Source of the DNA: Coriobacteriia bacterium
Lineage (GTDB): Bacteria > Actinomycetota > Coriobacteriia > WRKU01 > WQUG01
Direction of reading: 5' to 3'
Length of the DNA: 64,000 nucleotides
Assembly: GCA_009779855.1 (NCBI GenBank)
Contig: WRBC01000005.1
Location: 43,115 to 107,114 of the forward strand
Under the pieces are notes generated by a model that ran no database searches, was not told the origin of the DNA, and saw only the letters and a program-made list of their open reading frames with translations. This document shows positions 52-30,673 of the stretch, one piece after another. The position numbers and the translations under genes are program-made. Numbering within the stretch: position 1 is the stretch's first letter; each line of letters opens with the position of its first letter.

Positions 52-903
52 GTGCACTACAAAAGCTCTAGCGTGCAAAAAGGTAAGGTGTCAGCGCAGA
101 TTCCCAACACGGATTCGCTTGTCGCGCAGCCAGAGGTGAAGTCAAAGGTTGCTTGGATTTTTATCGCCGTTATTATTGCAGCTCTACTGGGGTTAGGTTA
201 CTTCATCTTTGAACGAACTAATATTGAGCCACCTCCCCCCGTTGAGCAAGCTGTTTCTCAAGTGGTTGTGCCCAACCTAATTGGACTAACAGAAGAGAGT
301 GCCACTCTTGAGCTTCAAAAGGCTGACTTAAGCCTAGGACAGGTAACAACAGCATCTGCTGAAGACACTCCTCAGGGGGCCGTGCCTGGAACGGTGATTA
401 GTTCGACCCCTGCAGAAGGTCAGGAAGTTGTGGAGGGCTCGCCCATCTCTATAGTGCTAGCAGCTGAAGCGCCCGGCGAGGCTGCCGATATGGTTCTAGT
501 TCCTAACACGGTAGGTCTGAGCGAAGAGGCCGTGCTCGATATTTTTGAAGAGCTTAATCTGACCGCAAATATAGTCAGATCGCCAGACCTAGAAGTTCCC
601 GAAGGAAACGTCATTATGCAGAGTCCTGCAGGGGAAGCAGAAGTTATTGAGGGCTCCATAGTTGTTGTGGTTATCTCTACAGGGGAACCCTTAGAGCCAA
701 CAGAGATTGAACTGGCAGATGTTACAGGACTACCCGTATCAGAGGCAACATATGAGCTGCAGGAAGCAGGACTTGTGGTGACTCTGCCCCTTATGGGCGG
801 CAGCAATGAGGCGGCCTTGGGTACTGTTGAAGGGCAGATGCCAGAAGCAGGCAGAAGTGTTTTGCTGGGCAGTGTTGTAATTCTAGAAGTCGAAACACAG
901 TAG
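52..903 (+). CDS. PASTA-domain membrane protein (N-terminal TM plus three PASTA-like repeats); frame is open back to nt 1, so the gene may start upstream of the window
   Basis: GTG at 52. TM helix 'VAWIFIAVIIAALLGLGYFIF'. Three ~65-aa repeats with a PASTA pattern (VPNLIGLTEESATLELQKA..., VPNTVGLSEEAVLDIF..., ADVTGLPVSEATYELQEAGL...). No in-frame stop between nt 1 and 51. Confidence 0.6.
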   Translation: MHYKSSSVQKGKVSAQIPNTDSLVAQPEVKSKVAWIFIAVIIAALLGLGYFIFERTNIEPPPPVEQAVSQVVVPNLIGLTEESATLELQKADLSLGQVTTASAEDTPQGAVPGTVISSTPAEGQEVVEGSPISIVLAAEAPGEAADMVLVPNTVGLSEEAVLDIFEELNLTANIVRSPDLEVPEGNVIMQSPAGEAEVIEGSIVVVVISTGEPLEPTEIELADVTGLPVSEATYELQEAGLVVTLPLMGGSNEAALGTVEGQMPEAGRSVLLGSVVILEVETQ

Positions 904-2817: not shown

Positions 2818-4741
2818 TGAACGCATCCAAAAAGAGCGCAGGCAAGGTTCGCAACACAGCAATGTAAATGCAGGTGCTGCTATTGCTGCCCCTCCTGCAA
2901 AGGTTGATGACTTCAAAGGAACCCTGAAAAAGTTCATAGCATTATTTAAAGAGGACAAACTACATCTTTTCTTGGCTGTGCTGCTGGCAGTGCTAGGTGT
3001 TTTAGCAACGGTGCTTGGGCCCCGAATACTTGCAGAGGCAACTAATGAATTAGCAGACTTTGTAACGGCGACATATGCTGCTTTGCAGGATGCGACTTTA
3101 AATGCGTCGGCAGTTGCCCCAGCGATTGATTTTACTTTCATTGCAAAGATACTTGCAGTAGTGGGTGTGCTCTACTTGTTGGGTGCTGCATTTAGTTATA
3201 TCCAGCAACGCCTAATCATTCATGTAACGCAGAAACTTATTCATGGGCTGCGTCAGAAAGCATCTGAAAAACTAGACAGATTACCCCTACGTTATTTTGA
3301 TCGCAAGCCTTACGGCGATACCTTGTCACGCATTACCAATGATATTGATTTGATTAATTCCAATCTGCAGCAGGTCATGACGCAAACTTTGACCTCACTG
3401 ATCATGATTGTCGGAATATTAGTCATGATGTTTGTCATCAATTGGATGCTGGCTCTGATTTCATTAATTGCCCTACCAGTGACCATGCTGCTTACTGCTT
3501 GGGTTGCGCCAAAGGCCCAGCGCTTCTTTGGTCGTCAGCAGGCTCAACTGGGTGAACTTAACGGCCAGATTGAAGAAAACTTTAGTGGGCACAATGTTAT
3601 TAAGGCCTTTAATCGCGAGGAAGCCTCTGTAGAGCGCTTTCGTAAGACAAATGAAAAGCTGTATGGTAGTGCATGGAAGGCTCAGTTTTTAACAAGCATC
3701 CTGATGCCGCTGTTTACCTTAATCACCAATATCCAGTATGTGCTTATAGTAGCGATTGCTGCTATATTGACGCGTCCAGAAGTTATGTTCCTAGGCACGA
3801 ATATAGGTGGGCTGCAGATCGGTCTGATCTTGGCGTTTATCCAGTATGTCCACCAATTCCAGCAACCATTGGTTACTACAGCACAGATGGCGAATCTAAT
3901 CCAGGGGACTATTGCTGCAGCAGAACGTGTCTTTGAACTGCTGGAAGAGGACGAAGAGCGTCCAGACGATGAAGAGTCCGCAAAGCATGACAGTCGCCCT
4001 CGTGGTGCGGTAAGTCTAGACAACGTTAACTTTGACTATGTGCCTGACGAACCCTTGATTCGCGATTGGAGCCTAGAAGTAAGTCCTGGTGAAATGGTTG
4101 CAATTGTGGGACCGACTGGTGCAGGCAAGACAACGGTGGTCAATTTACTTATGCGCTTCTATGACGCAGATAGTGGCAAGATTTGTATTGATGGCATTGA
4201 TACTCAAGAAATGACACGTGCTGGTGCCCGTGGATTATTTGGTATGGTGCTACAAGATACGTGGCTCTTTAGCGGAACTATCTATGAAAATATTGCCTAC
4301 GGTCGCGAAGATGCGAGTCGCGAAGAAATCATAGAGGCGGCTAAGACAGCTTTTGCCGATCACTTCATACGTACTTTGCCTGATGGTTACGATACAGTCC
4401 TGCAAGAGGACGCTCAGAACCTGTCAGTTGGACAGCGTCAGTTACTAACAATTGCACGTGCCGTATTGCGTGACGCGCCTATAATGATTCTAGATGAAGC
4501 CACAAGTAGTGTTGACACGAGGACCGAAAAACTGATTCAGGCAGCAATGGCACGTCTTATGCAGGGTCGAACGAGCTTTGTCATAGCTCACCGCCTATCA
4601 ACTATTCGCGACGCAGATAAGATTGTAGTAATGCAGCAGGGCCGTATTGTCGAGACAGGAACTCACGATAATCTACTAAAAAGCGGAGGCTTTTACGCAG
4701 AATTATACCTGTCACAATTCGCTGAAGACGAAGATTCGTAA
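2798..4741 (+). CDS. ABC exporter permease/ATPase fusion, subunit 2 with a canonical catalytic site
   Basis: TMD plus NBD: Walker A 'GPTGAGKTT', Walker B 'IMILDEATSSVD', H-loop 'AHRLSTI'. The signature is degenerate ('LSVGQRQ'). This matches the LmrCD/BmrCD-type asymmetric heterodimer pattern. Confidence 0.9.
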   Translation: MANSANDERIQKERRQGSQHSNVNAGAAIAAPPAKVDDFKGTLKKFIALFKEDKLHLFLAVLLAVLGVLATVLGPRILAEATNELADFVTATYAALQDATLNASAVAPAIDFTFIAKILAVVGVLYLLGAAFSYIQQRLIIHVTQKLIHGLRQKASEKLDRLPLRYFDRKPYGDTLSRITNDIDLINSNLQQVMTQTLTSLIMIVGILVMMFVINWMLALISLIALPVTMLLTAWVAPKAQRFFGRQQAQLGELNGQIEENFSGHNVIKAFNREEASVERFRKTNEKLYGSAWKAQFLTSILMPLFTLITNIQYVLIVAIAAILTRPEVMFLGTNIGGLQIGLILAFIQYVHQFQQPLVTTAQMANLIQGTIAAAERVFELLEEDEERPDDEESAKHDSRPRGAVSLDNVNFDYVPDEPLIRDWSLEVSPGEMVAIVGPTGAGKTTVVNLLMRFYDADSGKICIDGIDTQEMTRAGARGLFGMVLQDTWLFSGTIYENIAYGREDASREEIIEAAKTAFADHFIRTLPDGYDTVLQEDAQNLSVGQRQLLTIARAVLRDAPIMILDEATSSVDTRTEKLIQAAMARLMQGRTSFVIAHRLSTIRDADKIVVMQQGRIVETGTHDNLLKSGGFYAELYLSQFAEDEDS

Positions 4742-5274
4742 TGAGAAGGCAAACGAGTAAGCTCACCAAAAAGCTCATTATTGATGGCTACAATCTGATG
4801 TTTCAGGCTGACCCTTACGCAAGGCTTGCACGCGATGACGAGTGGGATCTTGCCCGCGATGCACTGGTGTCTGACGTTGCGTCTTATGCAGGACAACAGT
4901 TCGAGGCAACAGTCGTATTTGACGGAAAGAATAACCCCGTCAGTAACCGTAAAGATGAGGATAGACTGGGTGTAAAGGTTATCTTTTCTGATTACGGGAA
5001 AAGTGCTGATTCGGTAATAGAGCGCCTGGCAAAGCAGGCAGTTGATGCGGGTATTCAGGTCGAGCTTGTAAGTAGCGATGCCCTAGTCCAGTGGACTTCA
5101 CTTGGCAAAGGGGTAGTGCGTCGTAGCGCGGCAGAGTTTGCTCAGCAACTAGGTTTTGGCTACAGTGAATGGGAACGTGAGCGTGATGCCCATCCTAAGC
5201 GGTCAACGCTTGCTGACAGAGCAGGCCCAGAAGGCGCAGAACTTCTCCGCCGCATTCGTGATGGACGTTCGTAA
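4741..5274 (+). CDS. NYN/YacP-like (Rae1-type) RNase-domain protein
   Basis: 'LIIDGYNLMF...VVFDG...VIFSD' pattern typical of YacP/NYN proteins. Its ATG overlaps the upstream stop by 1 nt. Confidence 0.65.
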   Translation: MRRQTSKLTKKLIIDGYNLMFQADPYARLARDDEWDLARDALVSDVASYAGQQFEATVVFDGKNNPVSNRKDEDRLGVKVIFSDYGKSADSVIERLAKQAVDAGIQVELVSSDALVQWTSLGKGVVRRSAAEFAQQLGFGYSEWERERDAHPKRSTLADRAGPEGAELLRRIRDGRS

Positions 5275-5289
5275 TCATCGCGCTGTGCT

Positions 5290-8200
5290 ATGCTGAAAAC
5301 CAATATGAAGACATTCGAAAATGACTTACAATCTGCTCTAGGATGCAGTGCTGTTTTCGCTAGGCTAATTGCTTCGCGTGGCTTCACCACGGTAGAGGCT
5401 GTTCAAAAGTTCCTTAGCCCCTCCCTTGAAAAAGACTGGCTTGATCCCTATGAGCTTCGCGGCATGGAAGATGTTGTCACAAGACTAGATGCTGCACTTA
5501 CCAATGATGAGCATATCTGTGTTTTTGGCGATTTTGATCTTGACGGAATTAGCGCGACAGCGCTGATGGTTCGTGCCCTGCGGAAACTGGGCGCAACACA
5601 GGTCAGCTATCTTATTCCAAAACGTATTGGTGAAGGATATGGTCTTAGCGCGAACAGTGTACCAAAGCTTCTCTCGCTTGCTCCAGATTTGGTTGTTACG
5701 GTAGACAATGGTGTTTCTGCTGATGCTGAAATCAAGATACTGCAAGACGCAGGTATTGATGTTGTTGTAACTGACCATCATGAACCAGGGGACAACTTAC
5801 CAAAAGGCATTCCCATCCTAAATCCTAAAATGGATCCCGATTATGGCAAGCAGCAGATGGTTGAGGGCTATCCAGAAGAAACAGCTTTTGAGCTGAGTGG
5901 TGCAGCAGTCGCACTAAAGCTTGTGCAAGCACTTGGGGTACGCAGACTGAAGCCTCTTCTGTGGCTAGAGTACTTAGACTTAGCAACTTTAGGTACAGTA
6001 GCTGATGTCATCAATCTAACAGGGGAGAGTCGCGCCCTTGTCGCTGCAGGTATAGAGCAAATGCGTGTACGGCCTTTACCCGGATTGACAGCACTCACTA
6101 GTCAGTTAGCTAATGTTGACCAGGCTCAGATAACAGCACAAAATATTGCCTTTATAATAGGCCCTCGTCTGAATGCCGCGGGTCGTGTAGGGGACCCCGT
6201 AGAGGCTCTGAAATTGTTACTGGAAGATGACCCAGAAACAGCACAAATCCTTGCAAGCCGTCTTATTGATTTGAATCAGCAGCGCCAGGAAGTAGAGCGC
6301 GAATTAGGGGCTGCTGCCGTCGAGCAAGCTCAGCGTAACTACGATGGCCAGCGTGCCTTAGTGCTGGCAGGTGCGGGCTGGCATGAAGGGGTGCGCGGTA
6401 TTGTGGCTTCGCGCCTAGCAGAACGTTATGGTGTGCCCACCATAGTCGCAAGCATCAACGATCAGGGTCTTCTAGAAGGTTCGGCACGTAGCGTAGGCAA
6501 AGTTGATTTGTTTAAGGCCTTTTCAGCTTGCTCTGATCTGTTTAGTCATTTTGGTGGCCATGCGGGGGCAGCTGGTCTTACTCTTAAGGCTACGCGAATC
6601 GACGAATTTAAGCAGCGCCTTTTTGCCTATCTGGACACCCTCCCTCAAGAAGAATTTGCTCAACAGAGGCGTTCTGATATTGAAGTAAACTTGGCGGAAC
6701 TGGACTATGAACTAAGCTGTGAATTCGAACGGCTGGAGCCCTGTGGTGAAGGTAATCCCCGGCCCATTTTTTCAGCGCGTAGCATCGAAGTGACAGAAGC
6801 AAAGGCTGTGGGGGCAGAAGGCACGCACCTTCGCTTCATGGCACAGCAGCAGACTGCTCGCGTGCCTGCTATTTGGTTTCGAGCAGATCATATTGATGAA
6901 TGGCTGAGTGCTCCTAATCAGGCTCCACCTATGGGGGACGCCATTTTCAAATTGGATAAAGATACCTTCCGTGGCCGCAAGGGTGTGCAACTAAACATAA
7001 TTGAGGTATCTATGCAGGGTGACGATTTCCTACGCGGACTGTATGAGCGCGCCCCTGAAATAGTGCAGCGTCGTGAGTATGCAGGAATCAGTGACGCGGA
7101 GAGCTTCCATACGAAACTAGTTGGCGTAACCTTTGAAGGTCGCCAAGAGCTGATAGAGAAACTAACGCTAGATGACAAACTAGAACTACTGCGCGACACG
7201 AATAACGACTTTGACCAAAATGCCATTGCGATAGTGGCAAGCAGGCTGCGCGGAATCAAGGGTGGCCAACTAGGCTTTTTGAATCGTGACCTTGCCCGTG
7301 AATTAGCCCCCGTGATAGATGACGGTACTGACTATCATGTCAGAGTTGCTGACATCACAGGAGGATCCGAGGACACCTCTGCGCGTGGGGTAAACATCCT
7401 TATTGCACGTGCAGACGCAGAAGAGTCTGCGACGCAAGACTTCGAAGCTGGTCTTGCAGAGCGCAGGCGTCTGGCCACCTTGCCTGCTGATCAATTGCGA
7501 GACGAGCTTCGCCGCGTGTTCATAGGTGAGGGCAGACTGCATGATGCACAGGCAAAGACTCTTGACTCGTTGGCTCAGGATAATAATACGCTTACGGTAA
7601 TGGCGACAGGTCGAGGAAAGTCGTTGATTTTCCACATCCATGCTGCAGTTACTGCGATTAAGCAAGGGAAGCCCAGCATTTTCATCTATCCTCTGCGCGC
7701 CTTAGTGTCTGATCAAGCCTATCATCTCGAAGAAGCTTTTGCGCGCATTGGCTTAAAGATTGCGGTAATCACGGGCGAGACCAGTGTCGAGCAGCGCGAA
7801 GATAGTTACGCGCAGCTGTCCAGTGGGCAAATTGATATTGTCTTGACTACTCCGGAATATTTGCATTTTCACGCAGAATCTTTTGCAGCAGTTACGCAAG
7901 TTGGATTTGTCGTAATCGATGAGGCTCATCATATTGGACAGTCCCGCGCGGGAAATCGTCCAGCTTACGCCCAATTGGGTGCAGCTATCGCAAAGTTAGG
8001 TAGCAAGGGAAGAGGTCCAGGCACCAACTCTAGCACAGAAAGTAGCCCAGCTGCCCTGCCCACCACTCTGGCAGTAACCGCAACTGCCGGAACAGAGGTT
8101 GCTGCACGCATCTGTGAAACTTTAGGTATTGAAAAGCGCATCCTAGACCCTCATGTGCGTGAAAATCTTTTGCTGGTTGATAAGCGCACTGAAAAGGCCA

Positions 8201-9099
8201 AGTCCTTCAAGCAAAAATATGTGCTTCAGCTTGCAGAAGAGGGACCCTTAAACCAGGGCTCAAAATTAGTCATTTATGTTAATTCGCGAAAAGAATCAGT
8301 TACTTTGGCGCGCATCATAAGGAAGGCATTGCCAGATCTTGCGTGGAAGACCTCTTTTTATAATGGCGGCATGAAGCGAGCTGAGCGTGCAGAGGTTGAG
8401 TCACGTTTTCGTAGTGGTGACCTGCGCATTATTATAGCTACAAGTGCCTTTGGTGAAGGCGTCAATATTGGTGATATCCGTGACGTTATGTTGTACCATT
8501 TTCCCTTTAGCGCAGTAGAGTTTAACCAGATGTCAGGGCGTGCTGGTCGTGATGGTAAGCCAGCACATATCCATTTGCTATTTAATGAAGAAGACGCCCA
8601 GATAAATCGTTTCATCTTGATGCCTTTGGCCCCCCCGCGCCTTTCGCTAGCTGCGCTTTATCACGTGTTGCGCAGACTTGTAGAAGGAGAAGGCAACGGC
8701 TTCAAAATAACTAATCGTGATCTGGCAGAACTTGCGAATGATCAGCTGCGAAAAACAGGGGCTTTTGATAAGGGCAAGGGACGGAAAAATCACGCCAATG
8801 GCAGTAACGCTGGGGGTGGTCAATCTGCTCGCGACGATGCGCAGGTTTTACGGGAAGAAACAGTTTCGCAAGGCCTGGGTATATTCCGTGAGTTAGGTCT
8901 GGTAACAACTGCAGGACATTCTTCTGCGCGCACCATTACCTTGACAGAAGGTGCAGCCAAAGTAGATCTTCAGTCAAGCGTGCGTTATCTTGAGGGGCAG
9001 GATGAACAAGCGGACTTCGAAACTTTTAGAGAGTGGGCACTTTTTGCTGCAGCAGATGAGTTAAGGGATCGTTTTACCCGTCCTATTTTGCCCCAATAA
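5290..9099 (+). CDS. Fusion protein: RecJ-like ssDNA exonuclease (DHH/DHHA1) + HIRAN-like domain + RecQ-like SF2 helicase
   Basis: N-terminal half: 'FGDFDLDGISATA', 'VVVTDHHEPGD' (DHH motif), 'FGGHAGAAG' (DHHA1 GGGH-like). Middle: 'VGVTFEGRQ...DQNAIAIVASRLRGIKGGQLGFLNRDLARELAP' (HIRAN-like). C-terminal half: 'MATGRGKS' (helicase motif I), 'VIDEAHHIG' (DEAH), 'QMSGRAGRDG' (motif VI). One continuous 1269-aa ORF. Confidence 0.85.
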   Translation: MLKTNMKTFENDLQSALGCSAVFARLIASRGFTTVEAVQKFLSPSLEKDWLDPYELRGMEDVVTRLDAALTNDEHICVFGDFDLDGISATALMVRALRKLGATQVSYLIPKRIGEGYGLSANSVPKLLSLAPDLVVTVDNGVSADAEIKILQDAGIDVVVTDHHEPGDNLPKGIPILNPKMDPDYGKQQMVEGYPEETAFELSGAAVALKLVQALGVRRLKPLLWLEYLDLATLGTVADVINLTGESRALVAAGIEQMRVRPLPGLTALTSQLANVDQAQITAQNIAFIIGPRLNAAGRVGDPVEALKLLLEDDPETAQILASRLIDLNQQRQEVERELGAAAVEQAQRNYDGQRALVLAGAGWHEGVRGIVASRLAERYGVPTIVASINDQGLLEGSARSVGKVDLFKAFSACSDLFSHFGGHAGAAGLTLKATRIDEFKQRLFAYLDTLPQEEFAQQRRSDIEVNLAELDYELSCEFERLEPCGEGNPRPIFSARSIEVTEAKAVGAEGTHLRFMAQQQTARVPAIWFRADHIDEWLSAPNQAPPMGDAIFKLDKDTFRGRKGVQLNIIEVSMQGDDFLRGLYERAPEIVQRREYAGISDAESFHTKLVGVTFEGRQELIEKLTLDDKLELLRDTNNDFDQNAIAIVASRLRGIKGGQLGFLNRDLARELAPVIDDGTDYHVRVADITGGSEDTSARGVNILIARADAEESATQDFEAGLAERRRLATLPADQLRDELRRVFIGEGRLHDAQAKTLDSLAQDNNTLTVMATGRGKSLIFHIHAAVTAIKQGKPSIFIYPLRALVSDQAYHLEEAFARIGLKIAVITGETSVEQREDSYAQLSSGQIDIVLTTPEYLHFHAESFAAVTQVGFVVIDEAHHIGQSRAGNRPAYAQLGAAIAKLGSKGRGPGTNSSTESSPAALPTTLAVTATAGTEVAARICETLGIEKRILDPHVRENLLLVDKRTEKAKSFKQKYVLQLAEEGPLNQGSKLVIYVNSRKESVTLARIIRKALPDLAWKTSFYNGGMKRAERAEVESRFRSGDLRIIIATSAFGEGVNIGDIRDVMLYHFPFSAVEFNQMSGRAGRDGKPAHIHLLFNEEDAQINRFILMPLAPPRLSLAALYHVLRRLVEGEGNGFKITNRDLAELANDQLRKTGAFDKGKGRKNHANGSNAGGGQSARDDAQVLREETVSQGLGIFRELGLVTTAGHSSARTITLTEGAAKVDLQSSVRYLEGQDEQADFETFREWALFAAADELRDRFTRPILPQ

Positions 9100-9117: not shown

Positions 9118-9146
9118 TTGACAGAAGACTGTACTAGCAACATAAT
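9118..9146 (+). promoter_or_regulatory. Sigma-70-like promoter (TTGACA-17 nt-CATAAT) upstream of the small membrane protein/YbjQ pair
   Basis: TTGACA at 9118-9123, a 17-nt spacer, CATAAT at 9141-9146. About 12 nt upstream of the ATG at 9159. Confidence 0.45.
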
Positions 9147-9158
9147 ACAGTTTAGGAA

Positions 9159-9416
9159 ATGAGTGAGAGGATTTTAGAGATGTCCAAAAGCAATGTAATA
9201 AGAAAGATGGTTGCACCCATCGTTATTACAGTGATTACCTGCATGTTTCTTATCGGACAAATTGCAGTCTTTTTCTTCATTCCGGAAATGCCTCTGTGGG
9301 GGACCTTCCTTGGCGTTGGTTGCTCATTGCTTGTTTTGGGGGCAATGATTTATGTCCTGATTGAGCGAATTAAAGAGATTAAGAGCGGGGTAGAAGATGA
9401 TCTTGACAACTACTGA
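9159..9416 (+). CDS. Small two-TM membrane protein
   Basis: 85 aa with two hydrophobic helices. Overlaps the downstream YbjQ-like gene by 20 nt. Confidence 0.5.
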   Translation: MSERILEMSKSNVIRKMVAPIVITVITCMFLIGQIAVFFFIPEMPLWGTFLGVGCSLLVLGAMIYVLIERIKEIKSGVEDDLDNY

Positions 9417-9711
9417 CACTATTTCTGGCAGGAATTTCGAGCACTTAGGCCTGGTTAGGGGCAGTACCGTCCAAACAAGAAATGTCGGTCGTGATATTAC
9501 GCAACAGCTAAAGTCATTAGTTGGCGGAGAGCTACATGCCTACACAGAGATGATGAATAATGCACGTGCTCTTGCTACAAAACGTATGGTAGAACAAGCC
9601 ACGGAAATGGGCGCTGATGCCATCGTAACAATTCGCTATAACAGCTCATCGGTAATGCAGGGTTCAGTAGAAATTATTGCGTATGGTACTGCGGTAAAAT
9701 TTACTTCTTAA
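9397..9711 (+). CDS. YbjQ/UPF0145 family protein
   Basis: 'ILTTTDTISGRNFEHLGLVRGSTVQTRNVGRDI...' is typical of the YbjQ family (~104 aa). Confidence 0.8.
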   Translation: MILTTTDTISGRNFEHLGLVRGSTVQTRNVGRDITQQLKSLVGGELHAYTEMMNNARALATKRMVEQATEMGADAIVTIRYNSSSVMQGSVEIIAYGTAVKFTS

Positions 9712-11786: not shown

Positions 11787-12119
11787 ATGGCCTTAACTCA
11801 GGCTGAAGTCCGCGAGATTGGATTGATTGCTCGTCTTAATTTAGAGGACGGGGCAATTGAGGGACTCCAAGAAGAACTAAATCAAATTCTAACCTATGTT
11901 GAGCACATGCAGGAGCTTGACCTTGAGGGAGTAGCACCCACAGCCTATTCGACAGATTTCACGGATAGTCTGCGTGACGATGTGCGTGTTCCCAGTCTGC
12001 CGCGCGAGGCAGTACTTATGAATGCTCCCGAATCAAAAGAGGGGGCGTTTCTTGTCCCGCGCATTAAGGCACTTGGGATAGAGGACAGCAGAGAAGATAC
12101 AGCGGGGGGGGGCTCATAA
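11787..12119 (+). CDS. gatC: Asp-tRNA(Asn)/Glu-tRNA(Gln) amidotransferase subunit C
   Basis: 'LTQAEVREIGLIARLNL...LNQILTYVEHMQELDLEGV' is typical GatC. RBS AAAGGAG. Lies directly upstream of gatA. Confidence 0.9.
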   Translation: MALTQAEVREIGLIARLNLEDGAIEGLQEELNQILTYVEHMQELDLEGVAPTAYSTDFTDSLRDDVRVPSLPREAVLMNAPESKEGAFLVPRIKALGIEDSREDTAGGGS

Positions 12120-13625
12120 ATGTCTGATACGCAGAAGCGATTGGCGGATACGCTTCCTTTCATGTCGGCCACAGAGGTCTCTGCGCTGGTGACCAGCAAA
12201 GAGGTCAGCGCACGTGAAGTTGCGCATACTATGCTAGATCGCATCAAGCAACTGGATGGTGACATCCACGCCTATAATGAGGTTACACCAGAGCTTGCTT
12301 TGGCCGCAGCGGATAACCTTGATAAACGTATAGCAGAAGGTGCCACGGCTGAAGAATTGGGTAAGCTAGCGGGTGCCCCTGTTGCCTTCAAGGACAATAT
12401 GAACTTAGTTGGCACACATACAACATGTTCATCAAAAATGCTGGAAGGTTTCCAGTCACCCTATGACTGTACGGCAGTGCGCAGACTTCTTGATGCGCAC
12501 ACTCTTCCCTTGGGCAAGCTTAATATGGACGAGTTCGCTTTTGGCTCCTCCACAGAAACCTCTGCTACGGGACTTACCCATAATCCGTGGGACCACAAGC
12601 GTGTTCCAGGGGGATCTTCTGGGGGAAGTGCCGCAGCGGTTTCAGCAGGTATGGCGACCATTACTCTAGGTTCTGACACAGGAGGATCCATTCGTCAGCC
12701 AGCAGCCTTTACCGGTACCGTTGGACTAAAGCCTAGCTACGGACGTGTGTCTCGTTATGGCTGTGTTGCTTTCGCATCATCGCTGGACCAGATTGGGCCT
12801 TTCTCTCACACGGTTCGTGACAGTGCGCTTGCGCTAGGTGCCATTGCAGGAAAAGATCCGCTAGATGCTACCAGTATGAATGTTCCTGCTGAAGACTATT
12901 TTGCAAGCTGCAATCAGGGCGTGGAGGGTATGCGCGTAGCCGTGGCTACTGACTTGCTAGAACAAGAAGGCCTTGATCCGCGCCTAAAGAAAGAAGTTCT
13001 GGACAGTGCAGAATTGCTTGCTGGTATGGGTGCAGAGGTTGTGGAAATCACATTGCCCTCTACCAAGTACGGGCTTCCTGCTTATTACGTACTGGGCCCA
13101 GCGGAGGCCTCCAGCAACATGGCACGTTTTGATGGTATTCGCTACGGTCATCGTGCAGAGAATGCAGAAGATATTCTTGACCTGTATATGCGCAGTAGAT
13201 CAGAGGGCTTCGGTGATGAAACTATTCGCCGCATCATGATAGGTACCTATGTTCTTAGCTCAGGACATTATGACAGCTACTACATGCAGGCTCAAAAGGT
13301 ACGTACGGTTATCAGAGATGACTACAAGGCGGTGTTCGCCCAGGCGGATGTTTTGCTGACTCCTTCAACGCCTGTGCTGCCCTTCAAGTTTGGCGAATTT
13401 GCTGATGATCCTACGGCTATGTACTTATCGGATTACTATACGATTCCTGTAAATATGGCAGGTATTGCAGGTATGTCTTTACCGACGCGCCTTATTGATG
13501 GTCTGCCTGCAAGCGTTCAATTGGTAGCGAATCATTTTAGAGAGACTGACTTATTCCGTGCAGGTGCAGCATTAGAGAGCAGCTTTGCTTTTCCTTACGA
13601 CAGTGTTCCTGCAGGACAGGCATAA
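12120..13625 (+). CDS. gatA: Glutamyl-tRNA(Gln) amidotransferase subunit A (amidase signature family)
   Basis: Amidase signature 'GGSSGGSAAAV' and 'GSDTGGSIRQPA'. 501 aa. Confidence 0.95.
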   Translation: MSDTQKRLADTLPFMSATEVSALVTSKEVSAREVAHTMLDRIKQLDGDIHAYNEVTPELALAAADNLDKRIAEGATAEELGKLAGAPVAFKDNMNLVGTHTTCSSKMLEGFQSPYDCTAVRRLLDAHTLPLGKLNMDEFAFGSSTETSATGLTHNPWDHKRVPGGSSGGSAAAVSAGMATITLGSDTGGSIRQPAAFTGTVGLKPSYGRVSRYGCVAFASSLDQIGPFSHTVRDSALALGAIAGKDPLDATSMNVPAEDYFASCNQGVEGMRVAVATDLLEQEGLDPRLKKEVLDSAELLAGMGAEVVEITLPSTKYGLPAYYVLGPAEASSNMARFDGIRYGHRAENAEDILDLYMRSRSEGFGDETIRRIMIGTYVLSSGHYDSYYMQAQKVRTVIRDDYKAVFAQADVLLTPSTPVLPFKFGEFADDPTAMYLSDYYTIPVNMAGIAGMSLPTRLIDGLPASVQLVANHFRETDLFRAGAALESSFAFPYDSVPAGQA

Positions 13626-13645
13626 GCAAGCAAGCGACAGCAAGA

Positions 13646-15163
13646 GTGAATGACGATAAGAAATATATAAGGACAACACGGACTACGATGAAGGCGGAAA
13701 AGGACATAAAAAAGCCTCTCGATGTTGACGAAGGAAACCCTGAAGAGGGAATCAACGGAAATGGTGAGGTGGGCACTGCAGAGCTTGAGCAAGTAGTTGC
13801 AGATCAGGCGGCTCGTGCTGCTGCGGCAAAAATCGAAGACTCTTCCTCTGAAGTTTCCGACAAAGCCCCTGCAGAAGATGACACGGCACTTTCTGACCAA
13901 CTGCAAGGCTTGCGTGGCGAATTGAAGTCCACACTACCAGAGCCAGAGAAGTTTTTAAGCTTTGAAGCAGCAGTGGCTGACAGAGAAAGCAGCGAAGAAG
14001 ATGAGCAGTCTCCGGGCAGATTTCCTAATTCCCCGCGCTTTTTGCTGCGTTTTGGCATCATTGCCCTTGTTGTTTCACTTATTGTAGTGGGTGGACTTGT
14101 CTTATTTCTTCGTGTAGAGATGCCCTCTTTGGTGGGACAGACTTCGGTAGAAGCAAGTGAGACCCTTGTCGACCTTGGGCTTGATTTTGAGCTTTTTGAA
14201 GAAGAAGTTCCTGGAACCCCTGCAGGACAGGTGCTCTCTACAACACCTGCAGCGGGTGAGTACGTTATGCGCGGCACAACGGTAGTAGTACGTGTTGCAG
14301 CAGATACTGATCTTGTGGCAGTACCCGACTTGCGAGGAATGAGTCTTGATGAGGCTAAAGAGGCTCTAACAGCTCTGCGCCTAGACGCTGAAACGGTTTA
14401 TACCTTTGACGGTGCTGTGCCTGCGGGCAACATCGTTGGTTTCTTGCCGGTAATAAATACGCAGATTCCTGCGGGTACTTCTGTGACTATCTTAGTTTCT
14501 GCAGGAGTATTCGAGGCATCCCTTGATGTCCCGCGTGTCATTGGCTTGACTGAAGAGGCAGCCCGTACCGTTTTGATAGAGGCAGGTTTTAATCCCGTCA
14601 TGTACTATGCAGCAACAACACGGGGAGAGATTGACCATGTTGTTTCACAAACCCCGGGTGAGGGTAATATGGTGAGTCCAGGATCGCCCATATTGATGAT
14701 GGTCTCAACAGGGAACTCTACTACAGATCATCCTATTCCTGACGTTTCAGAAGAGCGAAGGGCTGAGGCAGAAATTATTTTAGAGCAAGCAGGATTCGAG
14801 CCAGAGCCCTTTTCTATCGTGGATGCTGGCGTAGATGCAGGGACGGTTATCTCTCAGATGCCTCCTGCCCAGGATGCCTTGCTACGTTCTGGTGATCCTG
14901 TGGGACTGCTTGTCTCAGCAGGCGCGAACTCAGCAGCAGAGGTTCCGAGTGTTTTAGGACTAGATGAGGAATCTGCGCGCGATACACTTCGCGGGGTAGG
15001 ACTTAATGCCGTGTTTATTTTTGATCCTGTTCTGGCCGGATCATCTGTAGATGACATTAGCCCAGAAGTAAGGGGAGATATTGTTACGCAGCAATTTCCT
15101 GCGGGGGGTAGCCAGTATCATATCGGGCTTCCCGTCCTAGTATTTTTGTCAGCACAGGATTAG
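13646..15163 (+). CDS. Membrane protein with an acidic cytoplasmic N-terminus, one TM and five extracellular PASTA domains (no kinase domain)
   Basis: TM 'FGIIALVVSLIVVGGLVLFL'. Five ~65-aa repeats, each opening 'VP.L.G' or 'VPSVLGL' and closing '...V.LLVS'. Sits between gatA and gatB. Confidence 0.8.
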   Translation: MNDDKKYIRTTRTTMKAEKDIKKPLDVDEGNPEEGINGNGEVGTAELEQVVADQAARAAAAKIEDSSSEVSDKAPAEDDTALSDQLQGLRGELKSTLPEPEKFLSFEAAVADRESSEEDEQSPGRFPNSPRFLLRFGIIALVVSLIVVGGLVLFLRVEMPSLVGQTSVEASETLVDLGLDFELFEEEVPGTPAGQVLSTTPAAGEYVMRGTTVVVRVAADTDLVAVPDLRGMSLDEAKEALTALRLDAETVYTFDGAVPAGNIVGFLPVINTQIPAGTSVTILVSAGVFEASLDVPRVIGLTEEAARTVLIEAGFNPVMYYAATTRGEIDHVVSQTPGEGNMVSPGSPILMMVSTGNSTTDHPIPDVSEERRAEAEIILEQAGFEPEPFSIVDAGVDAGTVISQMPPAQDALLRSGDPVGLLVSAGANSAAEVPSVLGLDEESARDTLRGVGLNAVFIFDPVLAGSSVDDISPEVRGDIVTQQFPAGGSQYHIGLPVLVFLSAQD

Positions 15164-15225
15164 TCAATTAATCATTTCGCTATTTAGAAGAAGGCTTTAT
15201 AAGGGGACGAAGGAAGGTAAGAAGC

Positions 15226-16797
15226 ATGCCAAGAGAATTAAAAGATGTACTGCATGACTGGGAAGCAGTGATTGGTCTCGAGATTCATACAGAAATTACG
15301 ACATCGCAGACAAAGATGTTTTGTGGCTGTCCTGTCGCCTTTGGTGGTGAGCCGAATTCGCGTACCTGTCCTACCTGTGCAGGTTTGCCAGGTGCACTAC
15401 CTGTGCCCAACAAGAAGGCAATCGAATGGACAGTGCTCTCTGGTCTGTCTATTGGTTGCGATATTGCGCGCTGGTCTCAGTTTAGCCGCAAGAATTACTT
15501 CTACCCTGATATGCCAGCAAACTATCAAATATCACAGTTTGACACACCTTTTTGCTTTGACGGTGAGGTCACGGTAGAAGTTGATGAAAAATTCACTTGG
15601 CAGCGCTATGACCGTGGTACCGCAGACAATGTCAAAGCTGTGGAGGGTGATGTCGATAAAGGCTACAATGCGCGCATCGGCGTAACTCGCATTCACCTAG
15701 AAGAAGACACAGGCAAGATGATACACGTTGGCGGTAGTGATGGCCGCATTACGGGGGCAATCGCTTCACTCGTTGACTTTAATCGTGCAGGTTTGCCACT
15801 TATGGAATTGGTAAGCGAACCCGACATTCGTACCCCAGAAGAGGCTCGTCGTTTTGTTCATAAGCTACGTAATATCTTTTTGACCTTGGGTGTTTCAGAC
15901 TGCAGTATGGAGGAAGGTTCCATGCGTGTTGATGGAAACATTTCTGTACGCAAACGCGGAACAACGGAGTTCGGAACAAAGACAGAGCTTAAAAACATGA
16001 ACTCTTTGAAAGCCTTACATGATGGTCTTACCTACGAGATTGTCCGTCAGGTGGAGCTAATTGAATCAGGCGGTAAAGTTACGCAAGAGACACGTCACTA
16101 CGATCCTGTGACAAAGGTAACAAGTACGCTTCGCTCGAAAGAAGATGCGCAAGATTATCGCTACTTCCCAGAGCCTGATATTGCCCCTGTTGTTTTGACT
16201 GACGCGCAGATTGAAGAAATTGCTTCCCGCCTACCAGAGTTACCTGATCAGCGAAAAGATCGCCTGATGAAAGACTTGGGTCTTCCAAACTATGATGCAG
16301 GTGTCATAGCAGGTGACGTTGAACTGTCAGCCTATTTTGATGAGGGTCTTGCCTCAGTAGGCAAAGGGCGCCTAAAAGATCTGGCAAAACCTTTTGCAAA
16401 CCTGGTTCTGGGCGATTTGAGTGCCTACCTCAATGCTGAGGGTATTACTGCTGACGCAAGCAAAATTAGCAGCGCTGACTGCATGGAGCTTGTCGGGCTT
16501 GTCCATGAAGGGACTATTAGTGGCAAACAAGCCAAAGAGGTTTTTGAACTGATGGTAGAAAGCGGAGCAAGTCCCACAACTATCGTTGAAGAGCGTGGCA
16601 TGAAGCAACTTAGTGATGCGGGTGAACTTGAAGGTATCATTACAGCTATTGTTGAGGCTCACCCAGATCAGGCTAATGCCTATCGTGGCGGAAAAACGGG
16701 ACTAATGGGCTTCTTTGTCGGGCAGGTTATGAAAGAGACAAAGGGACAGGCAAATCCTAAAATGGTAAACGAGATATTGGGACGCTTGCTCTCTTAG
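15226..16797 (+). CDS. gatB: Asp-tRNA(Asn)/Glu-tRNA(Gln) amidotransferase subunit B
   Basis: 'WEAVIGLEIHTEI...KMFCGCP' is the characteristic GatB N-terminus. C-terminal GatB/YqeY domain present. RBS AGGAAGG. Confidence 0.95.
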   Translation: MPRELKDVLHDWEAVIGLEIHTEITTSQTKMFCGCPVAFGGEPNSRTCPTCAGLPGALPVPNKKAIEWTVLSGLSIGCDIARWSQFSRKNYFYPDMPANYQISQFDTPFCFDGEVTVEVDEKFTWQRYDRGTADNVKAVEGDVDKGYNARIGVTRIHLEEDTGKMIHVGGSDGRITGAIASLVDFNRAGLPLMELVSEPDIRTPEEARRFVHKLRNIFLTLGVSDCSMEEGSMRVDGNISVRKRGTTEFGTKTELKNMNSLKALHDGLTYEIVRQVELIESGGKVTQETRHYDPVTKVTSTLRSKEDAQDYRYFPEPDIAPVVLTDAQIEEIASRLPELPDQRKDRLMKDLGLPNYDAGVIAGDVELSAYFDEGLASVGKGRLKDLAKPFANLVLGDLSAYLNAEGITADASKISSADCMELVGLVHEGTISGKQAKEVFELMVESGASPTTIVEERGMKQLSDAGELEGIITAIVEAHPDQANAYRGGKTGLMGFFVGQVMKETKGQANPKMVNEILGRLLS

Positions 16798-28008: not shown

Positions 28009-28794
28009 GTGAACAAAAGGCCATCAACAACTAGGCGCTACCTTCGGGACGCTACTCTGGGACAGCGACGAGCTGCATTTGCTGCCGCTGTTCTAACTGT
28101 TGTTATGTTGATTGCCGCCATCGCATTGTTCTTCGCAACAGAGATGGAGATGCTGCGTCCAACCCCAACAACTGCAGCAGAGACTCAGTATTTGCGTGCG
28201 CGAAGCGCAGAGAGTGATGCGATTGATGCAGCGAGAGCTGCAAGGGTGGCCGTCGACACCGCCCCTGCCGTAGTGGCAGCGCGTATTGACACTGCTGATG
28301 CTCAGCTTTTGATGGGACAATTTAGCGCAGCAGCACGCACCCTTGACCTGGTGCTAAGGGACAACCCACACAATGTGAGAGCTCTCATCTTGCGCGGTAA
28401 CGTGTATGAGACCTCTGGTGATAAGCGCGATGCGGTAGATACCTACCATCTTGTACTAGATTACGTAGGTACGCATGAACCTGAAGTGCGCCGTGAGGCA
28501 CTGCGCGGGATTGGCTACAGTCTAGCATCGTTAGGCGAAGGTCCTCAGGCGTTGGACGCGCTCACCCAGGCTGCTCTGATCGTTCCAGAGTCAACTACCT
28601 TGCATCTTGCAGCGGGGGAGCTTGCCCTTGAACTAGAGCGCTGGGAACTTGCAGCAACACATTTTTACTCCGTTCTTCGCTTTGCTCCCAACGATGAGCT
28701 CGCACTTGATCGCTTAGCTGTGCTGGAGCGTGATCATAGCGAGGCTGCTTCGGCAGCGCTTATCGCGCTTACCGAAGGGACTGCGTATGAATGA
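28009..28794 (+). CDS. Membrane-anchored TPR-repeat protein
   Basis: N-terminal TM 'AAVLTVVMLIAAIALFF', then TPR-like helical repeats (ALILRGNVYETSGDKRDAVDTYHLVL...). Confidence 0.6.
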   Translation: MNKRPSTTRRYLRDATLGQRRAAFAAAVLTVVMLIAAIALFFATEMEMLRPTPTTAAETQYLRARSAESDAIDAARAARVAVDTAPAVVAARIDTADAQLLMGQFSAAARTLDLVLRDNPHNVRALILRGNVYETSGDKRDAVDTYHLVLDYVGTHEPEVRREALRGIGYSLASLGEGPQALDALTQAALIVPESTTLHLAAGELALELERWELAATHFYSVLRFAPNDELALDRLAVLERDHSEAASAALIALTEGTAYE

Positions 28795-30547: not shown

Positions 30548-30673
30548 TTGCATTAATGGACAGTGCCAATTTACTTCCTGCACTATCAATATGAGTAAAA
30601 AGATTGTATTATGTACTAGTAGGATTTTCTGTTTTTTGACGACAGTCTATTGGTTGGCTGAAAGATTAGGCAC

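Follow-up and report, generated by a model that had tools for sequence, protein, structure and literature searches.

The window, meaning the whole 64,000-nucleotide stretch of Coriobacteriia bacterium DNA analysed here, contains a single uninterrupted open reading frame in which a RecJ nuclease, a HIRAN domain and a complete SF2 helicase core share one polypeptide (Table 1). The sequence-only reading had proposed this architecture, and Pfam, NCBIfam and conserved motifs bear it out: all six Pfam domains in question (DHH, DHHA1, RecJ_OB, HIRAN, DEAD and Helicase_C) score above their gathering cut-offs, and every string quoted in its support (VVVTDHH, GGHAGAAG, VGVTFEGRQ, NAIAIVASRLRGIKGGQLGFLNRDLARELAP, GRGKS, DEAH and QMSGRAGRDG) is present in the translation. 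The fusion gene is real and its reading frame confirmed, although the annotated start is likely five residues too early: a 100% identical database protein (P0001) is 1264 amino acids long and close homologs begin with MKTFE, so translation probably begins at the second ATG, at 5305 (M6), not 5290. Upstream lies the YacP-like NYN-domain gene that had been described as translationally coupled to the fusion; the gene is there, but the coupling is not supported, as its reading frame ends 15 nt before the ATG at 5290 and 30 nt before that at 5305, without overlap, no Shine-Dalgarno sequence is evident in the junction, and YacP was absent upstream of the fusion gene in every relative examined. In the window genome both genes probably belong to the same transcription unit, while the YacP-like gene does not belong to the conserved feature.

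Table 1 Features of the fusion locus, in window coordinates.
Feature	Residues	Position	Strand	Basis and details
YacP-like NYN-domain gene		4741..5274	+	PF05991, 105.7 bits
Fusion ORF	1269 aa	5290..9099 (including stop)	+	zero internal stops
RecJ DHH domain	75-236	5512..5997	+	Pfam; alignment to D. radiodurans RecJ 5f54
RecJ DHHA1 domain	355-448	6352..6633	+	Pfam; S398/R400 5'-phosphate pocket, GGH motif 422-424
RecJ OB-fold domain	463-571	6676..7002	+	Pfam 82.2 bits; TIGR00644
RecJ OB-HIRAN connector, conserved, partly helical	572-604	7003..7101	+	alignment, structure model
HIRAN domain	605-682 (Pfam)	7102..7410	+	Pfam match; beta-barrel to about 707 in model
HIRAN-helicase connector, long, helical, into RecQ-type motif 0	708-752	7411..7545	+	structure model, alignment
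Helicase RecA-like lobe 1	753-935	7546..8094	+	Pfam, alignment, structure comparison
Helicase RecA-like lobe 2	987-1089	8248..8556	+	Pfam, alignment; motifs IV YVNSR, V TSAFGEG, VI QMSGRAGRD 1080-1088
C-terminal tail	1100-1269	8587..9096	+	structure model, alignment

The N-terminal 570 residues are predicted to form a full RecJ, competent for catalysis; RecJ is an exonuclease that digests single-stranded DNA 5'-to-3'. The NCBIfam equivalog model TIGR00644 (recJ), whose cut-off is 396.9 bits, matches residues 19-570 with 486.4 bits, and the Pfam DHH and DHHA1 matches reach 74.9 and 55.4 bits. Both the metal ligands (D81/D83/D85, D139 and D162-H163-H164 in the DHH domain, D239 just past it) and the 5'-phosphate pocket (R112 in the DHH domain, S398/R400 in DHHA1) are invariant in 22 homologs of 50-79% identity. 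In D. radiodurans RecJ the corresponding sites comprise Asp79/81/83, Arg109, Asp135, His159, Asp223, Ser371 and Arg373 (PMC4846377), which in the structure 5f54 pair, in order, with D81/D83/D85, R112, D139, H163, D239, S398 and R400 of the fusion.

The HIRAN domain scores 30.6 bits against a Pfam cut-off of 24.7 and carries the conserved motifs GVTFEGR (F615) and NNDFDQNA (F641, D642), with G612, V613, E616, R618, N639, D642, A645, G662 and N665 invariant across the 22 homologs. Solved HLTF HIRAN structures (2mzn, 4xzf and 4s0n) align to it over NNPYDKNA...GHLKKELA with E about 0.003, and F641 takes the position of HLTF Y93, one of two stacking tyrosines bordering the HLTF DNA pocket (PMC4666394); the beta-barrel thus aligned appears to keep the pocket that captures a free 3' DNA end in human HLTF. 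The connectors on either side are also conserved in the 22 homologs: the OB-HIRAN connector has invariant L584, A588 and Y597 and is modelled as helical at model residues 5-18 (pLDDT 68-79), and the HIRAN-helicase connector, with helices at model residues 134-155 and 159-171, leads through a region in which F744, G746, L750, H751 and Q754 are invariant.

Both helicase lobes are well supported (Pfam DEAD, 82.7 bits; Helicase_C, 84.3 bits), and motifs 0-VI are invariant across the 22 homologs, those of lobe 1 including motif I (TGRGKS, 773-778), Ia (PLRALV), II (DEAHH, 877-881) and III (ATA, 931-933). The aromatic-rich loop of lobe 1 is reduced to a remnant, R890-P-x-Y893. A low-complexity insert at about residues 900-925 of the same lobe is specific to the window protein. 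Among solved structures, the closest sequence relatives are bacterial RecQ, RECQ4, WRN and RECQ5, and the top 50 Foldseek matches of the helicase model all belong to the RecQ family. The earlier assignment as a RecQ-like helicase therefore stands on sequence, fold and intact motifs, but a strict RecQ assignment fails: the helicase scores under the cut-off of the RecQ subfamily model TIGR00614, has no tetracysteine zinc module (zero cysteines beyond residue 942) and has no HRDC domain. The zinc module has been termed a signature of the RecQ family (PMC3378886). On these grounds we regard the helicase as RecQ-like but not a bona fide RecQ, and since it has neither zinc module nor HRDC, its substrate preference may differ from that of RecQ.

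The tail sits at the position of RecQ-C in structure comparisons and is modelled as a helical hairpin, a winged-helix-like fold broken by a disordered low-complexity loop, and a conserved helical hairpin. It contains no cysteines, has residues invariant in the 22 homologs, gives weak matches to winged-helix regulators and ends in the motif SVRYxEG...F..F..W...RFxRPILP. Of 24 members, 15 gave recurrent co-linear matches between PF10141 and the tail, the best with an E-value of 5e-05 and all below the Pfam cut-off, and a profile search with the tail did not retrieve the solved long RecJ 8y30.

The fusion is conserved in relatives rather than split. Its HIRAN-helicase half matches 237 clusters (50% identity) at E<=1e-30, most of them RecJ fusions of about 1200 amino acids from independent assemblies, and 195 of the 393 proteins fetched contain all three parts. 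The fusion, found in hundreds of sequence clusters, is the standard RecJ of the class Coriobacteriia and not a peculiarity of the window genome. Database entries for such fusions are named 'RecJ' only, and we found no literature describing them. Relatives carry the gene in the canonical recJ slot (secD-secF-[fusion gene]-relA), with hisS-aspS a few genes further downstream in two of them and no defence genes near the fusion gene; no recQ or recJ paralog lies within the 64-kb window. The fusion is the housekeeping RecJ of its Coriobacteriia host. Two kinds of variant occur. Stand-alone HIRAN-helicases take up the recJ slot in Eremiobacterota and are also found in prophage-like regions, and RecJ-helicase fusions without HIRAN occur in many Atopobiaceae (including cultured Olsenella) and in a Bacillota metagenome-assembled genome. 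HIRAN appears to be dispensable for the core function.

In other bacteria, separate RecQ and RecJ proteins jointly resect the 5' strand at DNA ends. We consider it probable, if by no means certain, that the fusion is a single-chain enzyme of this RecQ/RecJ type, targeted by HIRAN to 3' ends. In the mechanism that we infer, HIRAN would dock the enzyme onto a 3'-OH end at a break, gap or stalled fork; the RecQ-like motor would load on the 3'-ended strand and travel 3'-to-5' into the duplex; and the complementary strand, which has its 5' end at the same junction, would be displaced, passed to the tethered RecJ and degraded 5'-to-3'. Motor and nuclease would then move the same way along the duplex and leave a 3' single-stranded tail, or a bigger gap, for RecFOR/RecA. 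If HIRAN gripped the 3' end while the motor left along the same strand, the strand would need to loop out unless HIRAN released it. The 'built-in resection machine' of the sequence-only reading can reasonably be inferred from the polarities that the two enzyme families have: the RecQ-like enzymes characterised so far translocate 3'-to-5' (PMC3378886), RecJ degrades the 5' strand whereas RecQ is needed to open blunt or 3'-tailed ends (PMC4846377), and RecJ, which resects 5' overhangs by itself, depends on RecQ at ends of the latter two kinds (Morimatsu and Kowalczykowski 2014, as reported in PMC4846377). AlphaFold modelled the domains confidently but gave no confident interface between the halves: the full-length protein reached a pTM of only 0.57 (0.73 for the C-terminal half alone), and its model has no fixed route by which a strand leaving the helicase would enter RecJ.

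An unlikely but tenable alternative is that the fusion remodels forks, with HIRAN taking the nascent leading-strand 3' end at a stalled fork, the motor regressing the fork or unwinding the nascent lagging strand, and RecJ trimming the nascent 5' end. The order of HIRAN and SF2 motor is that of HLTF, whose fork reversal needs HIRAN-dependent 3'-end binding (PMC4666394), the 3'-end pocket residues are conserved, and at blocked forks in E. coli nascent DNA is known to be processed by RecQ and RecJ (Courcelle and Hanawalt 1999, as cited in PMC4846377). However, the motor is a RecQ-like single-strand translocase and unwinder, whereas that of HLTF is a Snf2-type translocase on double-stranded DNA, and many otherwise identical fusions lack HIRAN, so the conserved core activity would be independent of 3'-end capture. 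No LexA box was found, which is neutral here. Fork remodelling also overlaps with single-chain resection, the biochemistry being the same and the preferred substrate different. A fork remodeller would act mainly on stalled forks and daughter-strand gaps rather than on double-strand ends.

We think it rather improbable that the fusion serves co-localisation only, in that two independent enzymes would be kept at a 1:1 ratio and recruited together, for example to SSB-coated DNA, while the displaced strand would not be handed from helicase to nuclease. The full-length model, which places the halves without confidence, and the occurrence of the helicase module without RecJ in Eremiobacterota and prophage-like regions are both consistent with this idea, and no direct RecQ-RecJ contact was detected in D. 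radiodurans (PMC4846377), so coupling is not a known requirement. Against it, the RecJ_OB-HIRAN connector, partly helical and with invariant positions, is conserved and no variable floppy linker, and retention of the fusion across the whole class Coriobacteriia and beyond points to a benefit of physical coupling.

A role against phages or mobile elements, in which the helicase would be one of the RecQ-like defence helicases grouped with DpdF/PsyrT and RecJ would be its effector, is very improbable. The helicase core does match DpdF (177.7 bits) and PsyrT (168.6 bits) in PADLOC, and stand-alone HIRAN-helicase relatives in prophage-like regions have small HTH genes around them, but the match is confined to the generic helicase core, NCBIfam DpdF reaches 123 bits where its cut-off is 550, neither dpd nor psyrA partners lie close by, the module occurs in zero phages or plasmids of annotated collections, and the gene passes the RecJ equivalog threshold and sits in a conserved housekeeping slot in relatives. 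That neighbouring genes were merely joined through a sequencing or assembly error has nothing in its favour and is barely conceivable: the same junction, with residues invariant in the 22-homolog alignment, recurs in an identical, unbroken architecture in hundreds of independent assemblies, isolate genomes among them, which excludes an assembly-induced fusion.

Mycobacterial RqlH, shown to translocate 3'-to-5' (PMC3378886), is another RecQ-like motor from actinobacteria that lacks HRDC and has a non-canonical C-terminus, but it has a tetracysteine zinc domain and a ComF-like C-terminal domain and no nuclease or HIRAN fusion, and the window helicase differs on each of these points. HLTF and Rad5 resemble the fusion in carrying HIRAN immediately upstream of an SF2 ATPase, with an alignable pocket core motif and conserved aromatic and Asp positions; HLTF, however, is driven by a Snf2-type translocase that acts on double-stranded DNA, has a RING ligase and reverses forks, whereas the fusion is a bacterial housekeeping protein with a RecQ-like motor and a nuclease. 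WRN also joins a RecQ-family motor and an exonuclease on one chain, and its helicase core ranks with the best matches in both sequence and fold, but its nuclease is an N-terminal DnaQ-type 3'-to-5' enzyme, opposite in strand polarity to the DHH-family 5'-to-3' nuclease of the fusion, and WRN retains the Zn, RQC and HRDC modules, while the fusion helicase has neither zinc module nor HRDC. Sgs1/BLM with Dna2, and the bacterial enzymes RecBCD, AddAB and AdnAB, share with the fusion the logic of a motor-coupled nuclease that removes the 5' strand to leave 3' tails on which recombination can start, but are multi-subunit or pair SF1 motors with PD-(D/E)XK nucleases; to our knowledge, neither DHH nucleases nor HIRAN domains occur in any of them. 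Long RecJs (the Deinococcus-Thermus CTD type and the Firmicute type with PF10141, ssDNA-exonuc_C) have C-terminal extensions, as the fusion does, and we know of no other RecJ in which the extension is an ATP-driven motor. Lineage-specific C-terminal additions to RecJ serve partner binding (PMC4663267, PMC4846377). RecQ and RecJ of the RecF pathway in E. coli, D. radiodurans and B. subtilis are of the same enzyme families with the same expected polarities; the window protein differs in being one polypeptide with HIRAN between the halves and a conserved tail of its own, and would be a natural one-chain counterpart of this two-protein DNA-resection team.

The gene for the fusion protein is one open reading frame, and every sequence string quoted in the sequence-only reading, which had placed a RecJ nuclease, a HIRAN module and a RecQ-like helicase in a single polypeptide, was found in its translation. 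All six domains (DHH, DHHA1, RecJ_OB, HIRAN, DEAD and Helicase_C) were recovered above Pfam cut-offs. Searched against 5.8 billion proteins, the fusion gave 5573 matches, and the best 120 of these, 978-1388 aa long, carry the full set of six domains in 119 cases, P0013 lacking HIRAN only, so the proposed fusion is conserved in relatives. Where named, these 120 are called 'single-stranded-DNA-specific exonuclease RecJ' and come from Coriobacteriia or Actinomycetes metagenome-assembled genomes (MAGs). Since the architecture recurs across independent assemblies and the junction between RecJ and the HIRAN-helicase part holds residues invariant in 22 homologs, the fusion is not an artefact. A minor correction concerns the start: the identical database protein has 1264 aa and the closest homologs start 'MKTFE', so translation probably begins at the second ATG (residues are numbered here in the 1269-aa form).

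Features of the fusion protein, of the surrounding window and of loci in relatives
Feature	Position	Score or counterpart	Remark
Fusion ORF	5290..9099 (+)		1269 codons
Probable start codon	5305		second ATG
DHH	residues 75-236	74.9 bits	Pfam, above curated cut-off
DHHA1	residues 355-448	55.4 bits	Pfam, above curated cut-off
RecJ_OB	residues 463-571	82.2 bits	Pfam, above curated cut-off
HIRAN	residues 605-682	30.6 bits	Pfam, gathering cut-off 24.7
DEAD	residues 753-935	82.7 bits	Pfam, above curated cut-off
Helicase_C	residues 987-1089	84.3 bits	Pfam, above curated cut-off
Metal ligands, motif I	D81/D83/D85	drRecJ Asp79/81/83	alignment
Metal ligand, motif II	D139	drRecJ Asp135	alignment
Metal ligand, motif III	H163	drRecJ His159	alignment
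Metal ligand, motif IV	D239	drRecJ Asp223	alignment
5'-phosphate pocket	R112, S398, R400	drRecJ Arg109, Ser371, Arg373	alignment
Low-complexity insert KLGSKGRGPGTNSSTESSPAALP	7987-8064 (~residues 900-925)		between helicase motifs II and III
Second variable low-complexity loop	~residues 1150-1185		breaks up winged-helix tail
C-terminal end	8965-9096 (residues 1226-1269)		among most conserved stretches of whole protein, homologs included
Near-consensus sigma-70-type promoter	9118-9146	TTGACA-17-CATAAT	19 nt past fusion stop
Promoter, 85-aa predicted membrane protein and YbjQ-family gene	9118-9711		YbjQ-family gene at 9397..9711
gatC-gatA-gatB	11787-16797
505-aa four-PASTA-domain protein	13646..15163		between gatA and gatB
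Second PASTA-domain protein	52..903
NHL-repeat protein and MtrC/MtrF-like multihaem cytochrome domain protein	28730-32602
1176-aa ORF	48066-51596		sole Pfam match a weak PQQ_2/BamB-like beta-propeller stretch
Faint multihaem cytochrome matches	L005 14866-18770		few kb downstream of relative's fusion gene
P0152	L008 265-2193		stand-alone HIRAN-helicase-tail
P0171	L011 8001-9974		stand-alone HIRAN-helicase
P0169	L010 6463-8496		stand-alone HIRAN-helicase-tail, Vulcanimicrobiaceae MAG
P0164	L012 632-2533		stand-alone helicase

Judged from its residues, the RecJ half amounts to a whole enzyme. It scored 486.4 bits against the NCBIfam RecJ equivalog TIGR00644 (cut-off 396.9), with residues 19-570 covering profile positions 1-543 of 546, and its closest solved structures are RecJ 8y30 (E = 2.9e-82), Deinococcus radiodurans RecJ (drRecJ, 5f54) and Thermus thermophilus RecJ. 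The metal ligands and the residues of the 5'-phosphate pocket are given by the D. radiodurans structure (PMC4846377); all those listed in the table are invariant in 22 homologs.

The helicase is best described as RecQ-like. By sequence, the solved proteins closest to it are bacterial RecQ (4tmu, 3.9e-28), RECQ4, E. coli RecQ, WRN and RECQ5, and RecQ-family structures make up all of the top 50 in a Foldseek search. Motifs 0, I, Ia, II (DEAH), III, IV, V and VI of superfamily 2 are present with a RecQ-type signature and are invariant in homologs, and part of the aromatic-rich loop survives as R890-P-x-Y893. Sequence, fold and motifs bear out the helicase assignment, but strict membership of the RecQ family failed. 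The TIGR00614 RecQ model reached 155.8 bits, below its cut-off of 219.8, and was matched only over profile positions 8-343 of 470, its first two-thirds. The family signature, a tetracysteine zinc module after the ATPase core (PMC3378886), is absent, because the cysteines of the fusion protein are at positions 19, 77, 414, 477, 485 and 942 only, with none in residues 943-1269. Pfam searches of the fusion protein detected HRDC at none of the thresholds applied and gave no RQC match; HRDC occurs in many RecQ members, not in all. By analogy with RecQ-like enzymes, which move 3'-to-5' (PMC3378886), we infer 3'-to-5' translocation and unwinding for the fusion helicase. The low-complexity insert between motifs II and III is confined to the window protein and, in a shortened version, to a few homologs (7 of 21 aligned), close relatives P0004 and P0008 among them, and the structure model is of low confidence there.

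HIRAN (PF08797) scores higher in relatives (34-60 bits) than in the window protein, where it aligns to the solved human HIRAN domains of the fork-reversal factor HLTF (2mzn, 4xzf and 4s0n; E about 0.003), with 'LLRDTNNDFDQNAI...GGQLGFLNRDLARELAPVIDD' of the fusion against 'LQRDPNNPYDKNAI...GNQVGHLKKELAGALAYIMDN' of HLTF. HIRAN is a binder of 3' ends, and in HLTF Y72 and Y93 border the DNA pocket and stack on the terminal dinucleotide (PMC4666394). In the alignment to the HLTF PDB chains, F641 lies opposite Y93, a position held by F, Y or H among family members, and D642, invariant in 22 homologs, lies opposite the Asp adjoining Y93. Upstream of F641 lies a 'GVTFEGR' motif that contains the nearly invariant F615. 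We take F615 to be a plausible equivalent of HLTF Y72, from the Pfam match and the HLTF sequence. An AlphaFold model of residues 575-1269 (mean pLDDT 84.8, pTM 0.73) has a small beta-barrel at HIRAN, followed by a long helix into the helicase.

When the HIRAN-helicase half alone was run exhaustively with HMMER against 1.84 billion cluster representatives, it matched 237 clusters at E<=1e-30, most of them ~1200 aa long with a match that begins near residue 590, leaving a RecJ-sized N-terminus before it. Among 393 proteins gathered, 195 combine RecJ, HIRAN and helicase, 103 combine RecJ and helicase, and a handful consist of HIRAN and helicase alone. On the megabase contigs of relatives the gene order is queA-tgt-yajC-secD-secF-[fusion gene]-relA; in one relative hisS-aspS lie downstream of this block, and a HIRAN-less homolog also lies before relA. 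Between secDF and relA is the classical housekeeping position of recJ; in the window, the fusion gene follows an ABC-transporter pair and YacP rather than occupying this position. The HIRAN-less RecJ-helicase, of ~1080-1130 aa, is the RecJ of many Atopobiaceae, including that of the cultured isolates Olsenella sp. Marseille-P4559, Paratractidigestivibacter and Atopobiaceae bacterium 24-176, while HIRAN is kept in other Atopobiaceae; a Bacillota MAG also encodes one fusion that lacks HIRAN. P0195, a full RecJ-HIRAN-helicase fusion, was deposited as an 'archaeon' MAG. Locus L003 (CAZCRB010000009.1), labelled 'uncultured Eubacteriales', was left out as evidence for Firmicutes because its DNA is extremely GC-rich and actinobacterium-like; both this label and that of P0195 are probably binning errors.

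Genuine stand-alone HIRAN-helicase-tail proteins occur in two settings. P0169 directly follows secD-secF, that is, it fills the recJ slot, and P0164 comes immediately after a SecF-like gene that the contig edge truncates; no RecJ domain or detectable RecJ remnant was found upstream of either. They represent either the outcome of a fission in which the nuclease was lost or a pre-fusion state. P0152, with upstream stops in every frame, is surrounded by small helix-turn-helix (HTH) genes, and P0171 belongs to a prophage-like block; both lie among successive small ORFs with repressors of the HTH_3 type, a setting that resembles early regions of prophages or mobile elements, and the HIRAN region of P0152 scores 42 bits against PDC-M03B, a component of a PADLOC candidate system. 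Two further proteins were rejected as 'split' genes, P0137 because it begins at a contig edge and P0163 because it looks truncated. In a rough, midpoint-rooted neighbour-joining tree of the helicase plus tail, drawn without support values, HIRAN-bearing and stand-alone forms are deepest and HIRAN-less forms are scattered, a pattern weakly in line with an ancestral HIRAN in the helicase module that was lost repeatedly.

The tail behind motif VI is modelled as a helical hairpin, then a helix-strand-helix and helix-hairpin arrangement typical of winged-helix domains and interrupted by a disordered low-complexity loop, and a final helical hairpin; this winged-helix-like fold stands at the position corresponding to the RQC of RecQ. 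Foldseek alignments are ~150 columns longer to RecQ cores that include the zinc/winged-helix region than to chains without the winged helix, which suggests that the tail is located where RecQ-C is. A profile of 24 tails searched against PDB sequences gave weak matches to winged-helix regulators of the MarR/ArsR/ZitR type and one spurious coiled-coil repeat, and did not retrieve the long RecJ 8y30. Fifteen of the 24 tails matched PF10141 (ssDNA-exonuc_C), the C-terminal domain of long RecJ proteins, co-linearly at profile positions of about 97-186 (best E-value 5e-05), and every other family was matched by at most two. The highest printed PF10141 score was 21.1 bits (P0152), with 11.7 for the window protein and a Pfam gathering cut-off of 26.4. 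Since no printed score reaches the cut-off, and since the search missed the solved long RecJ, we treat this likeness as a lead only, pointing either to a helicase inserted into a long RecJ or to a common winged-helix partner-binding domain. Conservation is striking over the last ~40 residues, which read SVRYxEG...F..F..W...RFxRPILP; this stretch is found in all three architectures and matches no known motif. The extreme C-terminus is a candidate partner-binding site for SSB, the clamp or the RecJ half itself.

The sequence-only reading had also linked the fusion gene to an upstream YacP/NYN gene by translational coupling. The YacP-like NYN domain is real (Pfam), and its gene starts with a one-base overlap onto the stop codon of the ABC-transporter gene before it, but its end is separated from the fusion ORF by a 15-nt gap (30 nt as far as the probable start codon), and the junction shows neither an overlap nor a clear ribosome-binding site. 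YacP is absent upstream of the fusion in the closest relatives (L001 and L002) and at every other locus examined; the linkage is local and uninformative on function. No actinobacterial-type LexA box was found near the operon, the sole match in the 64 kb being at chance level and 35 kb off. The strong promoter-like site past the fusion stop precedes the gene for the predicted membrane protein, whose 3' end overlaps the YbjQ-family gene. Elsewhere in the window, PASTA-domain proteins are encoded at two places, and the cytochrome matches, together with the faint ones in a relative, hint at extracellular electron transfer in the lineage.

To our knowledge, the coordination of RecQ and RecJ on DNA is still described as functional cooperation only. 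RecJ degrades single strands 5'-to-3' and by itself starts only on 5' overhangs, blunt or 3'-tailed ends being opened by a 3'-to-5' helicase such as RecQ, and a structural study in D. radiodurans did not find direct contact between RecQ and RecJ (PMC4846377). In the fusion enzyme, HIRAN would bring the protein to a 3'-OH end, whether at a break, in a gap or at a stalled fork, the motor would go 3'-to-5' into the duplex and the nuclease would go 5'-to-3' on the displaced strand; since motor and nuclease would thus advance in one direction, joining them covalently makes geometric sense. It is possible, though on balance doubtful, that one whole bacterial class and some Bacillota have swapped the RecQ/RecJ pair for this single HIRAN-helicase-nuclease enzyme with direct strand hand-off, in which a 3'-OH end would be recognised via HIRAN and 3'-to-5' unwinding would be accompanied by simultaneous 5'-to-3' degradation of the opposite strand. 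[quoted passage not shown]

One less likely alternative shifts the emphasis to fork remodelling. HIRAN is otherwise studied in eukaryotic fork-reversal factors such as HLTF; here it is part of a bacterial RecJ-helicase. Another less likely alternative is that the fusion merely co-localises helicase and nuclease; when a 1198-aa homolog was modelled at full length, its domains were confident but the pTM reached only 0.57 and no fixed interface was predicted, and the two halves may be flexibly linked. A defence role as a DpdF/PsyrT-type helicase, disfavoured by gene context and by thresholds, was rejected: PADLOC gave scores of a comparable level against DpdF and PsyrT, which are RecQ-like defence helicases, but the matches are limited to the generic helicase core, the NCBIfam DpdF model gave 123.1 bits against a cut-off of 550, the fusion-gene neighbours are ABC transporters, YacP, YbjQ, GntR and gatCAB, without a dpd cluster or psyrA partners, and the context is a housekeeping one. 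The HIRAN-helicase-tail module is absent from phages and plasmids in annotated collections, where only RecQ cores of 24-32% identity were found.

Bacterial HIRAN domains have been described as fused to 'phosphoesterases or nucleases' (PMC4666394). The sequences of the fusion are public and annotated as 'RecJ', and no paper describing or testing a RecJ-HIRAN-helicase fusion was found in the literature searched, which was thin in subscription journals, so that absence there is not proof. The remark on 'phosphoesterases or nucleases' probably refers to other enzymes, and we know of no earlier HIRAN domain inside a core bacterial repair enzyme. We caution against reading the fusion as a new principle: helicase-nuclease resection enzymes are already a known kind, and it is a Rosetta-stone joining of two known partners with a known DNA-end sensor. 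A class-wide natural RecJ-RecQ-like fusion is evolutionary evidence that physical coupling is advantageous, and a single polypeptide of ~140 kDa could open the hand-off of strands from a 3'-5' motor to a 5'-3' nuclease to cryo-EM and single-molecule study. Its 3'-end sensor offers a simple system for HIRAN's contribution to a motor, with natural HIRAN-less and nuclease-less variants as controls. Thousands of entries labelled only 'RecJ' conceal a helicase, and surveys that score RecQ as absent in Coriobacteriia, including the gut genus Olsenella, may misjudge their recombination repertoire. Were the replacement of the RecQ/RecJ pair to prove true, the enzyme would be the bacterial equivalent, in a single chain, of HLTF together with BLM-DNA2.
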